Assembly (NCBI RefSeq): GCF_035594765.1
Contig: NC_085841.1
Location: forward strand, 57,395,636 to 57,459,635
Length of the DNA: 64,000 bases
DNA from: Anolis carolinensis
Taxonomy: Eukaryota
Direction: 5' to 3'
Positions 1,963 through 62,996 of this stretch are shown here, piece after piece (position 1 is the stretch's first letter; each line of letters opens with the position of its first letter). The position numbers were made by a program, and so were the translations under genes. The notes under the pieces are model-generated. The model was not told the origin of the DNA. It ran no database searches and worked only from the letters and a program-made list of their open reading frames with translations.

Positions 1963-2893
1963 TGTCAGGACCCAGGCTGCTGAGCACCAATAACCATACA
2001 CAGAGGCCAGAATCTATCTAATATCTTTATTGTGGAAATATATAAAGTTAATAAAAACAAGTGTAGAAAATAGTCCAGAAGTAGACCTTTCAGGAAAGGT
2101 CAAAATTAGTCCAAAGAAACAATGTCCAATATGAAATATTAAGGCCCAAAGTTGTAATCCAGTAACCGAAACACTCACTTTGCCAAGCAAAGTGAGGGGA
2201 GATGACAAGGTCCTTTAGTCCATGAAACTTAAGCAAGGCTAGGAAGTAAACTTGATTCTTGGAACACTAGGCTTAATTCAAGGCAACAAGAAACGAGGAG
2301 CAAGAACAGGATCCGTGGTAAATTCGTGGCGAGGTCCGGAAAGCAAGGCAAGGTCCGTGGAGCAAGGCAAGGTCCTGGGAAGCAAGGCAAGGCTGGAAAC
2401 GGGAGCAAAGGACTTGGACGCGGGAGTAGCGTAGTCCACACACAACCTACTCCCGAAGCTGACGAATTGACTCCGCAAGATTCCTACGTGGGCAAAACAC
2501 CTAAATAGGGTCTCGTTTTCCCGCCAAAGAACATTTCTCTGGGGAACCAGAACCGAAAGCCATTCTCTGTGTCCAGATGCATGACTCCCTAAAGTTTCCC
2601 ATGGGAAGCAGGCTTAATCAGCTGAATGCCTGGCAGCAATCCTAGCGCTCCTGCGAGACGCCTCCTGAGCGCTTTTCTGTTGTTTATAATAATCACGGCG
2701 AGAAAATGGGGGAGATTTCGGCTCAAGGCTTGTTTGGCAGACTTCTGGAAGGCAAATCTCCTGCAGGTGCAAGGGCTCCAATTCTGGCTGAAAAAGCTCC
2801 AATTCTGGCTGAAACGGTGGGAAACCTAAGTTTTCCTCTTCATCTGTCACAACAGTGCTAGGAACGGGACTACATGGCCCATGAGTCATCACA
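1963..2893 (-). mobile_element. Solo LTR of an LTR retroelement (copy 1)
   Basis: TG...CA termini, 5-bp TSD CTTAC/TTTAC, minus-strand AATAAA at 2031-2026. End-to-end homology with 26355-27216. Confidence 0.88.
2614..2889 (-). other. U3-located ORF in solo LTR copy 1 (91 aa from ATG, ends RRSARIAARHSAD)
   Basis: Open frame colinear with the ORF in LTR copy 2; silent-only changes in two motifs. Confidence 0.6.
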
Positions 2894-10417: not shown

Positions 10418-11003
10418 AAACAGCTCTGCCGGATGGTTTTTTGCGGACCCAATATCAGCTGTAAAGAAAGAGTTCTTTGTAGCATCTATTGCCGCGGCAT
10501 ATGTCCTTAGATAGGAGCATAGCCGTGTTCAGTCTGATTCATTCCGCTCCGAATGCCACACGCCCTCTAGTTCCCTCTTCTTTCGCTTCATCACTGCCAA
10601 CTCCTCGGTGAACCAAGAAGCTGGTTTAGCTCGGGTACTCGAGAGGGCACATTCTGAAGCGATCATGTCTATTGCCCTAGTCACTTCCCCATTCCAGAGA
10701 GAGACCAGAGCATCTACAGAATCACCAACCAAGGTGGCGGAAAACTCCCTAAGAGCCATCATTAATCCATCCGGATCCATAAGCCTCCTGGGGTGGACCA
10801 TTTTAATAGTTCCTCCACCCCAGCAGTGGCTAGGCAGCGCAGCCAGTCTAAACCTGATCAGGTGATGGTTGGTCCATGGCAACAGAACGATGGTAAGCTC
10901 CTCCACACCAGCACCTTCCTTCCATCCCTGGCAGAAAACCAAGTCAAGTGTGTGCCCCACTCTGTGGGTGGGACCAGATACCAGTTGGGGCAGCCCCATG
11001 GTC
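10418..11003 (-). mobile_element. Internal L2 LINE fragment (endonuclease C-terminus/linker)
   Basis: ORF 10529..11053 is colinear with ORF 62340..62852 (GHTLDLVFCQGW...KPAxWFTEELA). Confidence 0.88.
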
Positions 11004-11550
11004 ACTTCATTCTGCGCTCCATTGTTTTTCATACTACTACTGCTGCGCTGCAATTCTCTGACAGACTATAGTGCAGCGGGGTGGTCAGTACACCAACAGA
11101 ATCCCTAATTATTAGTATTATAGGAGGAAAAAGCCCTGTGCCATGAGAGCAAAAACAAGTCCCCTCTGCCAAAAAAAAGTCTTGTCAAAAAAAAAAAACT
11201 CTGATAGAGTCACCACAAGTCAGATTTAACTTGAAGATACACAACAATATACCAAAATATACTGGAAAGATATGTCAGCCTTTTGAAAAACTGGAAACAT
11301 TTTATAGCCTTCTCAAAGATTGGAAAGATTGCATTATTTTGTGGGCTACAACTGGCTGGAGGATTCTGGAAGTTATGGTCTACAAAAGTCACAAAGTATT
11401 TATTAAGTAGAATACTCAGGAATATACACTGTCTCCATGCTCATATTTTTAAGATGCATTCTCTTCAATTTTGAGAGTCGATCAAGACGTATCATGTCCA
11501 ATATCCTGTTTCTTACAATGGCCAACTAGATGCCTATTGTGCATCTAGAA

Positions 11551-14814: not shown

Positions 14815-15987
14815 TACTAAACACATGGTTGCACTTGTAAATGCTGTGTATGTGTATGTCCTAAAATTAAAAGAAATTACATATACCTCAACTGGGCCAA
14901 TTTTGATCTCTTCTTCTTAGCAGTATCATTTTGAGGCACATGTAAACACTCTCACTCCTCCCTTCTCTTTCTTTACCTACAGGATTTTCTTGCATGGGGA
15001 AAGCAAACTGGCCTTGTAGCTAGACTATCATCTTTGGTGATGGTTCATGTCACATGGAGTTGTGCACATCCAACTACTCATCTGCCTCTTCCCCATGATA
15101 GTTCCATCCCCTCACTATTGACAAGTAATGGGTAAAGCCTATCTATAGCTCACAGTCCTCCAACTTTTCTGTCACCGACCTTCGTGAGATGGGTCAGTAT
15201 TGCTTTTGCGCTGGCATGTCTGCAGTAAAGTGACATCATAGGGCAGGAATCTCCTCCTCTTCCCACTCATCACTATTACGAACCCATTCACTTTCCATTT
15301 TATCTTAACTTTATAATTCTATTTTCCCTTTTAAAAATGGCTAAATTGCTATGAAATACAAATAAAAATAACATGGAATAGTAGGAAGGCAGGGATGCAA
15401 GGGTATGTAAATGTACAACTGTAGGACCATGAATTATTGAATCAGTGCAATTTCACAACTGAAAAGAGGTGCAATATTGGAGGTGCTCAACCTGGTATGT
15501 ATCCATTGTCAATAACAGCAGAAGAGGTGATAAAAGGGAAAGAATGTTTCTGCTATATAGTTAGAATTAATCGAACTGAACGGAAGTATGAAGAACGGAA
15601 GTCAAGAACTTTTCTTTTGTTTTTCCCACCCCTCCCTTTTTTCTTTTCTTTTTTTCTTTTCTTTTCTTGTTGTTGCCCTCCTTCCTTCCCCCTTCCCTTT
15701 GTCCTACCCTTAAATTCCATGTTCTGTTTATTATTGTAACTTTTGAAATCCTTTTAATAAAAATATTTATTTAAAAAATGATAACAGTAGAATTCAACAC
15801 ACACAGTCTACACCTGCCATTGAATCAGTTCAGGTTATATGTGAGTGAATTGTATTTTGAATATTTTCTCATGCACACATACACAGCTGGACTGAAAAAA
15901 ACACAAAAATATTTATGTAGAAAAAAGTTTACCTTTGTTTTCTTTTAATAATTTTTACGTATGTTTAGGGACTGGGGAACTGGGGAA

Positions 15988-17680
15988 CCTAAACAAGCTG
16001 TGGTTAGGCCTATCCTGAAGAAGGCCTCTCTGGATTCGACCAACCTAGGCAATTACAGACCAATCTCTAACCTTCCATTTTTGGGCAAGGTCTTGGAGCG
16101 GGTGGTTGCCTCGCAGCTACAGGGATTCTTGGAGGATGCGGATTTTCTGGACCAATCACAGTCTGGCTTCAGGCCTGGGTTCAGTACCGAGATGGCTTTG
16201 GTCGCCTTGGTGGATGACCTCCGCAGGGAACTGGACAGGGGGAGTGTGACCCTGCTGGTTCTCTTGGACATCTCAGCGGCTTTCGATACCATCGACCATG
16301 GTATCCTTCTGGGACAGCTCTCTGGGATGGGCCTTGGGGGTACTGCACTCCAGTGGCTCCAGTCCTTCCTGGAGGGGCGTTCCCAGATGGTGAAGCTGGG
16401 GGACACCTGCTCGGACCCCTGGCCTTTGACCTGTGGGGCCCCGCAAGGTTCTATTTTGTCCCCCATGCTTTTTAACATCTACATGAAACCGCTGGGAGAG
16501 GTCATCCGGAGTTTTGGAGTGAGGTGCCATCTCTACGCGGATGACACCCAACTTTACTACTCTTTTCCACCTAAATCCAAGGAAGCCCCTCGGATTCTGA
16601 ACCAGTGCCTGGCCGCTGTGTTGGCCTGGATGAGGGTGAACAAGCTGAGACTTAATCCTGACAAGACAGAGGTCCTCCAAGTCAGTCGTATGTCTGATCA
16701 GGGTATTGGGTGGCAACCTGTGCTTGACAGGTTTGCACTCCCCCTGAAGTCTCAGGTCCGCAGCTTGGGGGTCCTCCTGGATTCGGGGCTGACGCTTGAG
16801 GCCCAGGTGTCGGCCGTGGCCGGGAGGGCCTTTGCACAATTAAAACTTGTGCGCCAGCTGCGACCATACCTCGAGAAGTCTGATCTGACTACGGTGGTCC
16901 ACGCCTTAGTTACCTCTAGACTGGATTATTGCAATGCGCTCTACGTGGGGCTGCCTTTGAAGACGGCCCGGAAATTGCAATTAGTTTAGCGCTCGGCAGC
17001 CAGGCTTTTAACAGGAGCAAACTAAAGGGCGCGTTCTACGCCTCTGTTTAAGGAGCTCCATTGGCTGCCGTTTGTTTTCCGGGCCCAATTCAAGGTGCAG
17101 GTTATCACCTACAAAGCCCTAAACGGTTTGGGACCCACCTACCTTAGAGACCGCATCTCCCCCTATGAACCTGAATGATCTCTTCACTCTTTTGGGGAGG
17201 CCCTCCTCTCGCTCCCACCACCTTCGCAGTTGCGACTGGTGGGGACGAGAGAGAGGGCCTTCTCCGCTGTGGCCCCCCGCCTCTGGAACTCACTCCCGAG
17301 GGAGATTAGACAGGCCCCCACCCTCCTTGCCTTTCGGAAAAGCCTTAAAACCTGGCTTTTCCAGAGGGCCTTCGACGACTAATTTTTGGGGGTTGATTTG
17401 TCTGCCCATTTAATTTAATTAGAGAGTGTTCTGCCATGATTATTGATACCTTGCTGAGTACTTCTGCCACGAAGCTACAGAAGCCCTCTATTTCGGCCTA
17501 GAACTGTTTTATCTCCTTGTTTTTAACATGTGATGTATGTATTGATTGTATGACTGCTTTTCATGTTTGATTTTACAATGTGTAATTTGTCACTGTTTTT
17601 ATTATTGTTGTGAGCCGCCCCGAGTCCCCTCGGGGAGATGGGGCGGGATATAAGAATACATTTATTATTATTATTATTAT
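15988..17680 (+). mobile_element. 5'-truncated L2-clade LINE with reverse transcriptase domain
   Basis: 342-aa ORF with YRPISNLPFLGK, QSGFRPG, LLDISAAFDT, GAPQGSILSP, YADD and LDYCNALYVGLP. Premature TAG at 16987. 3' (TTA)n tail. Confidence 0.93.
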
Positions 17681-26354: not shown

Positions 26355-27216
26355 TGTGATGTCTCATGGGCCATGTAGTCCCGTTCCTAGTACTATTGTG
26401 GCAGACGAAGAGGAAAACTTGGGTTTCCCACCGATTCAGCCAGAATCGGAGCCCCGGCACCTGCAGGATGTTTGCCCTCAAGAAGTCAGCCAAACAAGCC
26501 TTGGGCAGAATTCTCCCCCGTTCTCTCGTAAGGATAATTATAATAGAGATAGAGGCGCTAGGGAGGCGAATCGCCGAAGCGCCAGAATCGCTGCCAGACA
26601 ATTAGATGATTAAACCTGTTTCCCTTGGGAAATCTTAAGGAGTCATGCATCTGGACACAGTTTGGGTTTCACTTCTTGTTCCCCAGGGAAAGTGTTCCTT
26701 GGCGGGAAAACAAGATCCTATATAGGTGTTTTACCGCAAGGAAATCCTTGCGGAGTCAATTCGTCAGCTTCAGGAGTGAGATCGTGTGTGGACTACGCTA
26801 CTCCAGTTCCTTGTTTCCAGGACCAAGTTCCAAGCCTGCCTTGTTCCCCGGACCTCGCCACGGACCTTGTTCTTGCTTCTTGCTTCTTGTTGCCTCGTAT
26901 CAAGTCTTGTTTGCCAAGAATCTAGTTTGTTTTCCAGCCTTGTTGTCAAGCTCCATTGGACTAAAGGACCTTGTCATTTCCCCACACTTTGCTCGGCAAA
27001 GTGTGTGTTTCGGTTATTGGATTATAACTTTGGACTCTAATATCACATATTGGACATTGTTTTCCTGGACTAAATTTGACCTTTCCTGAAAGGTCTACTT
27101 CTGAACTATATTCTTCACTTGTTTTTATTGACTTTATATATTCCTTTAATAAAGATATTAGATAGATTCTGGTCTCTGCGCATGGTTATTGGTGCTCTGC
27201 AGCCTGGGTCCTGACA
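26355..27216 (+). mobile_element. Solo LTR, same family (copy 2)
   Basis: TGTGATG...CTGACA termini, 5-bp TSD AGGTG/AGATG, TATATA at 26719, AATAAA at 27148. Confidence 0.88.
26359..26613 (+). other. U3-located ORF in solo LTR copy 2 (84 aa from ATG, ends RRSARIAARQLDD)
   Basis: Same start and same GAT-TAA end as copy 1; only an in-frame indel separates them. Confidence 0.6.
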
Positions 27217-60204: not shown

Positions 60205-62811
60205 ATTTATTTATTTATTTATTACATCACTTCTACCCCGCCCTTCTCACCCATCAGGGGACTCAGGGTGGCTTAGAATATAAACATACACATCAAAAAA
60301 CAGTTTTCATCAAATTTAAAAATCCATCAAGATTAAAAATTACAATAAAATTAAGAATATACATTAAAATATACATAATTATACATTTAAATATACATTT
60401 AAGGTGCTTTCCATGTCCAGATGGGGTCTGTCAGTAGGTCATATATTCATATCTCATTTTTGCTGCTACTCGTGCTGAAATGCCTGGTCCCATAACCATG
60501 TTTTTGTTCTCTTTCAGAAAGACAGGAGGGAGGGAGCCAGCCTGACTTCAATGGGGAGAGTATTCCATAGGCGGGGAGTCACTACTAAAAAGGCCCTGTC
60601 TCTCGTCCCTGCCAGCCGCACCTGTGAGGCTGACGGGACCGCGAGCAGGGCCTCATCTGATGATCTTAAGCTTCGAGGTGGGTCGTAGCGGGAGACATGT
60701 TCGGACAGATAAGCTGGGACGGAACCGTTAGAGCTTTATAGGTTAAAGCCAGCACCTTGAATTGTGCTCGGTAGCTAATCAGCAGCCAGTGGAGCTTGTG
60801 TAACAGAGGAGTGGTACGCTCCCTGTACGCCGCTCCAGTTATTAACCTGGCAGCCTCCCGTTGGACTAATTGAAGCTTCTGAACAGTCTTCAAAGGCAGC
60901 CCCACGTAGAGTGCGTTGCAGTAGTCTAAACGGGATGTAACAAGAGAGTGGACCACCGTGGCCAAGTCCAGCTTCCCAAGGTATGGTCGCAGCTGGCACA
61001 CAAGTTTTAATTGTGCGAAGGCTCCCCTAGCCACCGCTGAGACTTGGGGTTCCAGGCTCAATGATAAGTCTAGGATCAACCCCAGAATGCGCACCTGGGC
61101 CTTCAGGGGGAGTGTGACCCCATCCAGCACAGGCTATAACCCTATACCCTGTTCAGTCTTCCGACTGACCAGGAGGACCTCTGTCTTGTCTGGATTCAAT
61201 TTCAATTTGTTGGCCCTCATCCAGTCCGACACAGCGGCCAAGCACCGGTTCAGGACCTGAACAGCCTCCTTAGTGACAGGTGGAAAGGAGTGACAGAGCT
61301 GGACATCATCTGCGTACAGATGACACCGGACCCCGAAACTCCTGATGATCTCTCCCAGCAGCTTCATGTAGATGTTAAACACCATGGGAGACAATACAGA
61401 GCCCTGCGGGACCCCACAAGTCAACGGTTGTGGGGTCGAGCAGGCATCCCCCAATGACACCATCTGGGACCGACCCTCCAGGAATGAGTGGAGCCACTGC
61501 AAAACAGTACCTCCAAGTCCCATTCCCGCAAGGCGTCCCAGAAGGATACCGTGATTGACGGTATCGAAGGCCGTTGAGAGGTCCAGCAGAACCAGCAGGG
61601 AAACACTACCCCTGTCCAGTTCCCGGCAAAGACCATCGACTAAGGTGACCAAGGCTGTCTCGGTACCATGCCCCGGCCTAAAGCCAGACTGTGCCGGATC
61701 CAGAAAATCAGTGTCAACCAAGAATCCCTGGAGCTGCAAAGCAACCACATGTTCCAAGACCTTGCCCAAATAGGGGAGATTGGAAATAGGCCGAAAGTTT
61801 CTGAATTGAGTGGGATCCAATTATGGCTTTTTCAACAGCAGCTTGATCACAGCCATTTTTAGGCTCGCTGGAAACTTGCCCTCCCGAAGGGAGGCATTCA
61901 CCATCACCTTCACCCACTCGGCCAAACCCCCTCTGGCTTCTCTCACCAGCCAGGATGGGCAGGGGTCCAGGATGCATGTGGTCGGTCTCGCCTCTCCAGG
62001 GATCTTGTCCACATCCTCGAGCTCAACCAATTGAAATGAATCCAACAAAACAGGACAAGCAGGTGCACTCGTTACATCCTGAGAGACTGCCGTTAATATG
62101 GTGTCAAAGTTGGAGCGGATCAGAGCGACTTTGTCCGCAAAGAACCGAGCAAATGCTTCACAGCGGGCTGCCGAGTTATCAGGGCTCCCACCTTGATTGG
62201 TGGGAGTTAACAACTCTCTGATGACACAGAACAGCGCCGCTGGACAGTTCTGTGCGGATGCAATATTGGCCGCAAGGTGGACTCTCCTTGTGGCTTTGAT
62301 TGCTGCGGCATATGCCCTAAGATAGGAGCCTAGCCATGTTCAGTCTGACTCGTTATACTCTGATCGCCACACGCACTCTAGTTCCGTCTTCTTTTGCTTC
62401 ATCGCTGCCAGCTCCTCAGTAAACCAAGGAGCTGGTTTAGCTCGGTTACTCGAGAGGGGACGCTCCGGAGTGATCGTGTCTATTGCCCTAGTCATCTCTC
62501 CATTCCAGAAAGAGACCAGAGCATCAACAGGATCACCTGCTGAGGAGGCGGGAAATTCCCCAAGAGCCGTCAGGAATCCTTCTGGATCCATAAGTCTCCT
62601 GGAGCGGACCATTTTAACAGGTCCACCACCCCTGCAGAGGTTGGGGGGCGCAGTAAGTCTAAACCTGATCAGGTGATGGTCGGTCCATGGCAACGGAGCG
62701 ATGGTGAGCTCCTCCACACTGCCACCTTTCTTCCATCCCTGACAGAAGACCAAGTCCAGTGTGTGTCCCGCACTGTGGGTGGGGCCTGTTACTAATTGGG
62801 ACAGCCCCATG
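60205..62811 (-). mobile_element. 5'-truncated L2-clade LINE (end of APE endonuclease, linker, RT; frameshifted)
   Basis: ORF pieces with GHTLDLVF/WTDHHLI, LDPCPSWL, GVPQGSVLSP, YADD and LHWLL. (TAAA)n tail at 60205-60222. Confidence 0.93.
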
Positions 62812-62996
62812 CATGCATGCTCATACCTTTTCCTCCAGATTTTTTGCCCCATTCAGAACTAGAATTTTTCATTAAAAAACCAAGATTTTGTATTCTTCAT
62901 CTTGCATCTTTCCCATATTTTTTCCAAACTGTATTTGATTTTGCTTTCTCACATGTAAGTAGTAACAGCCAAGCACCACATTTGTATCAAAACAAT

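Follow-up and report, generated by a model that had tools for sequence, protein, structure and literature searches.

Introduction

An HMGN-type motif has been shown to function in only a few proteins, namely HMGN (RRSARLSA), Dsup (RRSSRLTS), and Dot5 (RRSARIAT). Cryo-EM resolves residues 22-26 of HMGN2 (RRSAR) at the acidic patch, where R23 and R26 serve as anchors, and the RRSSR segment of Dsup binds the nucleosome similarly (PMC12487698). Yeast Dot5 binds the acidic patch via RRSARIAT, and a change of R6, R7, or R10 abolishes binding (PMC13347269). Short chromatin-tethering arginine-anchor peptides are also present in KSHV LANA (anchor residues M6, R7, L8, and R9), HCMV IE1, the foamy virus Gag CBS, and MLV p12, and herpesvirus and foamy virus proteins tether genomes through the acidic patch (PMC9040877). 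These viral tethers are Gag products or herpesvirus proteins with other motifs, none of them located on an integrase or encoded by an LTR, and the word retrotransposon does not occur in that review (PMC9040877).

For retrotransposons, there is a precedent for the capture of a chromatin reader (PMC6673714), and in the plant CRM group A, the coding sequence extends into the 3' LTR and carries a targeting domain (PMC3059260). In the Tf1/sushi V-clade (Sushi-ichi, Amn-ichi, -ni, and -san), an SH3/GPY-F domain and a chromodomain follow the integrase, the PBS is complementary to the LTR of the element itself, the TSD is 5 bp, and AATAAA lies near the LTR end (PMC6317226, PMC3601003).

Here, we analyze a stretch of 64,000 nucleotides from Anolis carolinensis (the window) with two LTRs of an element that has all of these V-clade features in common, but adds an acidic U3-encoded tail of 84-97 amino acids ending RRSxR[IL]A. 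The core of this ending, R-R-S-x-R-[IL] with three essential arginines, is common to HMGN, Dsup, and Dot5, but in the lizard it is found on a retrotransposon integrase with no other HMGN features, and nucleosome binding is predicted from sequence. As in CRM group A, coding sequence reaches into the 3' LTR. However, in that group a CR motif with an unknown partner replaces the chromodomain (PMC3059260), whereas the lizard motif sits behind an intact chromodomain, the copies are dispersed instead of centromeric, and the host is a lizard and not a plant. The lizard element is not a CRM member, and only the layout is common to both.

Results

Two solo LTRs in the window belong to a young, abundant chromovirus

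Copy A (26355..27216, plus strand; 862 bp, TGTGATG...CCTGACA) and copy B (1963..2893, minus strand; 931 bp) represent subfamilies A and B of the element, respectively. Because the 5-bp TSDs of the two LTRs differ, each pair having one mismatch (AGGTG/AGATG and GTAAA/GTAAG), and no gag or pol matches were found elsewhere in the window, both copies are solo LTRs, confirming the claim of the preliminary description that they were inserted independently. Among 60 LTR loci, the TSD was a perfect 5 bp in 28, had one mismatch in four, and was missing in one; 14 loci belonged to longer elements, and 13 were without an end that could be found. The window also contains LINE reverse transcriptase/endonuclease fragments, recognized by ORF content and repeats (15961-17413, 60728-61977, 10474-11032, and 62285-62852), and many short interspersed repeats, all of which are ordinary.

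Searches of the genome DNA with both LTRs returned 3321 and 3011 candidates, and the 40 that were scored for each were 98-100% identical. LTR pairs ~5.4 kb apart among the genome matches correspond to elements of 6.3 kb, and the LTR pairs within single elements differ at 2-7 sites, indicating that the family is young. Elements with an internal region have gag first and pol in the -1 frame. Pfam analysis of the pol frame of locus L031 identified PR, RT, RH, IN, SH3_Tf2-1, and Chromo, with the PR-RT-RH-IN order of a chromovirus pol, and the chromodomain (PF00385, E 1.3e-8) spans residues 1208-1256 of 1367, at the integrase C-terminus. In an alignment, the three cage aromatics, F (EEFEV), W (YLIDW), and F/Y (VGF/VGY), are present at what we take to be the cage positions of HP1; by these residues it is a type I chromodomain, predicted to read methyl-lysine. 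The window LTRs belong to a young, very abundant Ty3/Gypsy chromovirus of the Tf1/sushi type. Database proteins matching the element are labelled Anolis carolinensis, and in an integrase-chromodomain tree, whose rows do not include named Sushi-ichi or Amn reference elements, it is placed among squamate, amphibian, and fish chromoviruses. Copies of subfamilies A and B are dispersed along chromosome arms.

In copy A, a TATA-like box, CTATATAGG, is found at 26718..26726 (plus strand), 3' of the ORF, its function being presumed from sequence, and an AATAAA polyadenylation signal is found at 27148..27153 (plus strand), close to the LTR 3' end. The PBS, TTGACTCCGC, lies directly after the 5' LTR in four of five elements examined and pairs with GCGGAGTCAA (26750..26759 in copy A, plus strand), ~30 nt past the TATA-like box, with a duplex energy of -18.2 kcal/mol in two elements. 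As the complement of this PBS, GCGGAGTCAA is predicted to be both the self-primer and the RNA 5' end. In the Tf1/sushi group, self-priming is likewise described as relying on a PBS that is complementary to the 5' end of the element's own RNA and not to a tRNA (PMC6317226).

The U3 open reading frame encodes the C-terminal tail of Pol

The ORFs of copy A (26359..26613, plus strand; 84 aa) and copy B (2614..2889, minus strand; 91 aa) both begin with an ATG at LTR nucleotide 5, end at GAT-TAA, and are situated upstream of the TATA-like box, as previously stated in the preliminary description. The greater length of the copy B ORF derives from one 21-nt in-frame duplication. The predicted RNA start is 3' of the ORF, which would place the ORF within U3 and confine it to the 3' terminus of the element RNA.

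In elements with an internal region, the Pol frame proceeds from the chromodomain across a linker of 21 aa, within which the PPT lies, and into the LTR ORF, in frame and to the same stop, with 1283 (L031), 547 (L032), and 199 (L065) open codons upstream of the LTR ATG; of seven loci, these are the three for which both LTR ends were located by script. In addition, 40 loci were taken from 150 chromodomain hits for varied, mostly long, open frames, with the tail ignored in the choice, and these included 28 of family 1 with a 3' LTR, 11 of other families, and one in which no PPT was found. Pol was in frame with the LTR ORF in 25 of the 28 family-1 loci and broken at the PPT in the other three. The motif was found near the ORF end in 26 of the 28 (three with one of the first two arginines changed), and the LTR ORF was truncated in two. 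It is near certain that the ORF represents the last 84-97 residues of Pol, read through the PPT into the 3' LTR, with copies A and B holding the last 84 and 91 codons, and that it is no separate gene. The preliminary description had proposed a chromatin-tethering LTR peptide, either as an accessory protein or as the Pol/integrase tail; the in-frame read-through and the upstream domains place it on Pol, and a stand-alone protein is disfavoured. The chromodomain adjoins the tail upstream on the same integrase, which lay beyond what could be seen from the window.

The 84-aa tail by itself had no match in Pfam or among PDB sequences. Contigs of four sequencing runs, none of which is recorded as RNA and which carry no information on expression, had no joint with splice-like ends into the LTR ORF. 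We also noted that in loci L094, L096, L103, and L176 the frame is broken at the PPT G-run, uncoupling the tail from pol, which may be decay or an assembly error in the homopolymer. A database gene model for a cation-transporting ATPase (P0004) has this LTR peptide fused at its C-terminus, likely an annotation artefact, and at G000:C1:5980548-5980917 (L058, L162), a subfamily-B LTR is apparently inserted in a family-2 LTR, just downstream of its motif.

The terminal motif is under purifying selection

Three blocks stand out in the copy A ORF (all plus strand): the acidic ADEEENLGF (26401..26427), retained as D/E-rich-[LMF]GF across family-1 lineages; SPPFSR (26512..26529), the PxF of which is retained in most lineages; and the HMGN-like RRSARIAAR (26572..26598; 2655-2629 in copy B), a predicted arginine anchor. 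The earlier counts for copies A and B proved exact, with six nucleotide differences in five codons of RRSARIAAR, all silent, and three differences in SPPFSR, all silent, followed by a K/R exchange. The binomial p for this silent excess is 0.0004 for the motif and 0.026 for SPPFSR, for blocks picked post hoc. Over the whole ORF, this pair alone gives a pN/pS of 0.63 (p = 0.10), which is not significant, and over codons 1-51 it gives 1.15. Constraint on the ORF is visible across lineages, not in the A/B pair alone.

For the analysis across lineages, 26 copies with ORFs of 78-105 aa were clustered at 93%, yielding 18 lineages with one real copy each; two copies were dropped. Pairwise values are not independent, and the resulting figures are descriptive: dN/dS of the LTR ORF was 0.33 in the Pol frame compared to 0.96 and 1.37 in the other sense frames, so that only the Pol frame is well below 1 among these, and it was 0.51 in the antisense frame that shares third positions with the Pol frame. 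In the 150 nt after the stop, dN/dS was 0.77-0.94 in all six frames. At the motif, dN/dS was 0.12 (pS 0.65, pN 0.15), indicating purifying selection as the preliminary description had supposed. For the region upstream, an earlier run in which the copies kept all had the motif gave 0.16 for SH3, 0.11 for the chromodomain, and 0.72 for the linker plus PPT. Indels in multiples of three made up 25 of 64 inside the ORF and 62 of 307 outside (p = 0.002), which is the expected direction but noisy and of little weight.

The motif resembles the nucleosome anchor of HMGN proteins

The motif reads RRSLRIA in eight and RRSARIA in four of 17 aligned lineages, with RWSLRIA, RWSARIA, RRSTRLA, RRSARIS, and RRSARLA in one each. 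R1, S3, and R5 are invariant, R2 is present in 15 lineages, position 4 is free, and position 6 is Ile or Leu. The likeness to HMGN claimed in the preliminary description held up and is reinforced by Dot5 RRSARIAT (PMC13347269), with which RRSARIAA of the window is identical at seven of eight residues. The RRSxR core is present with its three essential arginines, and the residues that are constant in the lizard elements, the arginines and the serine, are those that matter in HMGN2 and Dot5. Position 7 is Ala in the lizard compared to Ser/Thr in HMGN and Dsup; Dot5 also has Ala. Genome-wide, a degenerate RRSxRIAA[KR] pattern had 15,621 matches compared to 0 for a reversed control, and a second pattern with a TCN serine had 997 compared to 112.

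Some observations are less favorable to an anchor. Half of the lineages have RRSLRI, not RRSAR, which counts against this reading. AlphaFold2, with a seven-sequence alignment, gave a mean pLDDT of 38, and the motif region, the sole part above pLDDT 60, was helical; a predicted helix at the motif likewise counts against an anchor, given that HMGN and Dsup are bound as short segments. Prediction of a complex between the last 37 residues and the genome's own H2A/H2B scored 0.02, which is no evidence for or against binding, and AlphaFold 3 likewise fails on HMGN2 (PMC12487698).

The motif is the sole element common to otherwise dissimilar tails

In family 2 (L099; ~44-68% Pol identity), Pol extends into the LTR as an acidic linker that is unrelated and has the ending RRRSARLAARNAAE, and the motif serine is encoded by TCA instead of AGY. 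In family 3, also a chromovirus (L176), solo LTRs end RRS[LVI]RIA, and a Podarcis Pol ends RRSARLKA. The motif frame is the same relative to the LTR start in all three anole families. The linkers of family 1, 2, 3, and Podarcis tails do not align, and RRSxR[IL] is their sole common element. Among 245 database proteins with a recognizable chromodomain, R[RK]SxR[ILV] was found downstream of this domain in 10 (four Anolis, five Podarcis, and one unnamed), although many of the 245 are spliced gene-model chimeras or incomplete, and absence of the motif is weak evidence. RRSxR is absent from the Rhineura (P0129) and Vipera (P0135) tails, which are long and acidic with a basic end.

An integrase-chromodomain tree of 40 rows, from which two rows were dropped for lack of an anchor and in which two were under half filled, places the three anole families in one group (98/91) and unites this group with Podarcis, Python, Pituophis, and Rhineura (96/98). 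A tail-less anole clade is placed elsewhere. It seems that the long tail is characteristic of a single squamate branch, part of which has retained the motif, with no donor or order of events implied.

This second chromovirus clade comprises 10 loci (L068, L069, L080, L083, L092, L097, L102, and L104-L106) with ~45% Pol identity and 240-bp LTRs that are 99.6-100% identical in three elements. It has the chromodomain but lacks the acidic RRSxR tail, and represents a natural negative control. Chromoviruses in general can thus replicate without such a tail, as this clade does in the same genome, and its thriving counts against the anchor.

Several other sequences with related endings were observed. 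In further, older LTR-like families (L163, L170, L174, and L175), whose internal regions were not found, P[TSA]F[LV]E is followed in the same frame by the ending RRS[AST]RLA. P0164, which is nearest to frog elements, runs only 10 residues into what is presumed to be the LTR and terminates in RRSARIAARV; it is a single sequence, and among 38 hits, no relative bears the motif. P0282 has a chromodomain and carries the label Salmonella, but is probably a contaminant; it ends RLRSGR, like what we take to be the LANA anchor. In fish chromovirus Pol (for example, P0005, P0090, P0118, and P0123), RGRP, presumably an AT-hook-like core, occurs right after the chromodomain; among the 245 proteins, none has both RGRP and RRSxR. 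The fish relatives differ from the lizard element in that their read-through extends only ~15-25 residues into the LTR, ending SP[EVA][FY], which resembles the PxF block in tails of the lizard elements.

LTRs of family 3 (start TGTTGTGGTTCAG; L148-L164, L123, L171, and L176) crowd at chromosome ends. All 32 best hits on six large contigs were within 15 Mb of an end, compared to three of 36 for subfamily A and five of 35 for subfamily B, with 11.5% expected; these are top-scoring hits only, eight of 40 hits on small contigs were left out, and the query itself is near an end.

Alternative explanations

Two alternatives concern whether the ORF acts as part of Pol at all. It could also, or mainly, encode a stand-alone accessory protein translated from the LTR ATG, as with MMTV sag, from solo LTRs or a subgenomic RNA. 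An ATG at nucleotide 5, seen in 16 of 17 lineages as well as in the two window copies, would suit such a protein, as would the thousands of LTR copies, but this ATG lies within the LTR terminus recognized by the integrase (TGTGATG), precedes the predicted RNA start by ~390 nt, and is missing from lineage L103 of family 1 and from families 2 and 3. The ORF is continuous with pol and has no conserved start of its own, and we regard a stand-alone product as highly improbable. That the read-through is neutral, with conservation stemming from promoter DNA elements in U3, would agree with the window pair, which shows no significant constraint over the whole ORF. However, this reading is largely refuted by the persistence of the amino acids at a motif pS of 0.65, by a dN/dS well below 1 only in the Pol frame among sense frames, and by the switch in serine codon family between element families.

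The remaining alternatives accept the Pol C-terminus but assign it a different function. The motif could serve as an NLS, as a basic patch for general DNA binding, or as a kinase site instead of an acidic-patch anchor. The last 35 tail residues are basic, with 8-9 K/R, the motif-less acidic tails of Rhineura and Vipera, which end in basic runs, fit a looser basic function of this kind, and RGRP directly after the chromodomain is found in fish relatives (45 of 245 proteins). Nevertheless, the invariant Ser3 and Arg5 and the Ile/Leu6, with position 4 free, exceed the needs of an NLS, an anchor Arg is never replaced by Lys in 17 lineages, and the pattern agrees with the residues that matter in HMGN2 and Dot5, so we view this possibility as unlikely. 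It is less probable still that the tail binds another host chromatin factor via a C-terminal helix, the acidic-[LMF]GF block, or both, loosely like the TIMs that LEDGF-type domains read. An acidic linker and, optionally, FxGF are features of TIMs (PMC9987994), the predicted helix covers the motif, and a D/E-rich-[LMF]GF block is found in family 1 with a DDEGGFGF-like one in family 3. On the other hand, the first Phe of FxGF is missing from the block, neither family 2 nor Podarcis has the block at all, and only RRSxR[IL] is common to all four groups. Measured against the TND-interacting motif, a helix with an acidic linker and, for LEDGF/HRP2, FxGF, the tail does not qualify.

Discussion

On balance, we favor the interpretation that pol read-through places an integrase tail in U3 whose terminal RRSxR[IL]A would dock on the H2A/H2B acidic patch as a nucleosome tether, and, judged by itself, the role of the motif as an acidic-patch anchor is probable. 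An integrase with two chromatin contacts, the chromodomain and an arginine anchor, would be the most economical reading. The tail would be translated from the 3' copy of U3 on the genomic RNA and would stay on the integrase after translation, with the long acidic, Pro-rich linker possibly acting as a flexible leash. The chromodomain has all three cage aromatics and may read a methylated H3 tail; with the motif simultaneously holding on to the face of the nucleosome, the result would be a two-point hold, and RRSxR[IL]A on the acidic patch would thereby tether the integration complex to nucleosomes. In solo LTRs such as those in the window, the tail coding sequence would be a passenger, with no expression predicted.

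The element family is probably already catalogued, and its read-through into the LTR may already have been noted. In the titles and abstract openings covered by our literature searches, we found no description of an HMGN-like motif or of such a tail in a retrotransposon. Eight residues would fit both homology through capture of the motif and convergence.

A broader and more doubtful idea is that in vertebrate chromoviruses the start of U3 serves as an exchangeable slot for chromatin-gripping peptides behind the chromodomain, HMGN-like in lizards, AT-hook-like RGRP adjacent to it in fish, and LANA-like LRSGR in P0282, so that the integrase would be a two-point reader whose tail helps set insertion sites, with the end bias of family 3 as a possible example. 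For such questions, a single genome provides natural comparisons, with families that have different tails, one tail-less clade, and one family at chromosome ends. The Pol tail accounts for ~15,000 sites in the Anolis carolinensis genome that encode the same nonapeptide, and a motif under purifying selection at the integrase end, next to a chromodomain, would offer a short, testable peptide for the access of vertebrate chromoviruses to chromatin. If the proposed docking is true, acidic-patch tethering would extend from viruses to LTR retrotransposons.
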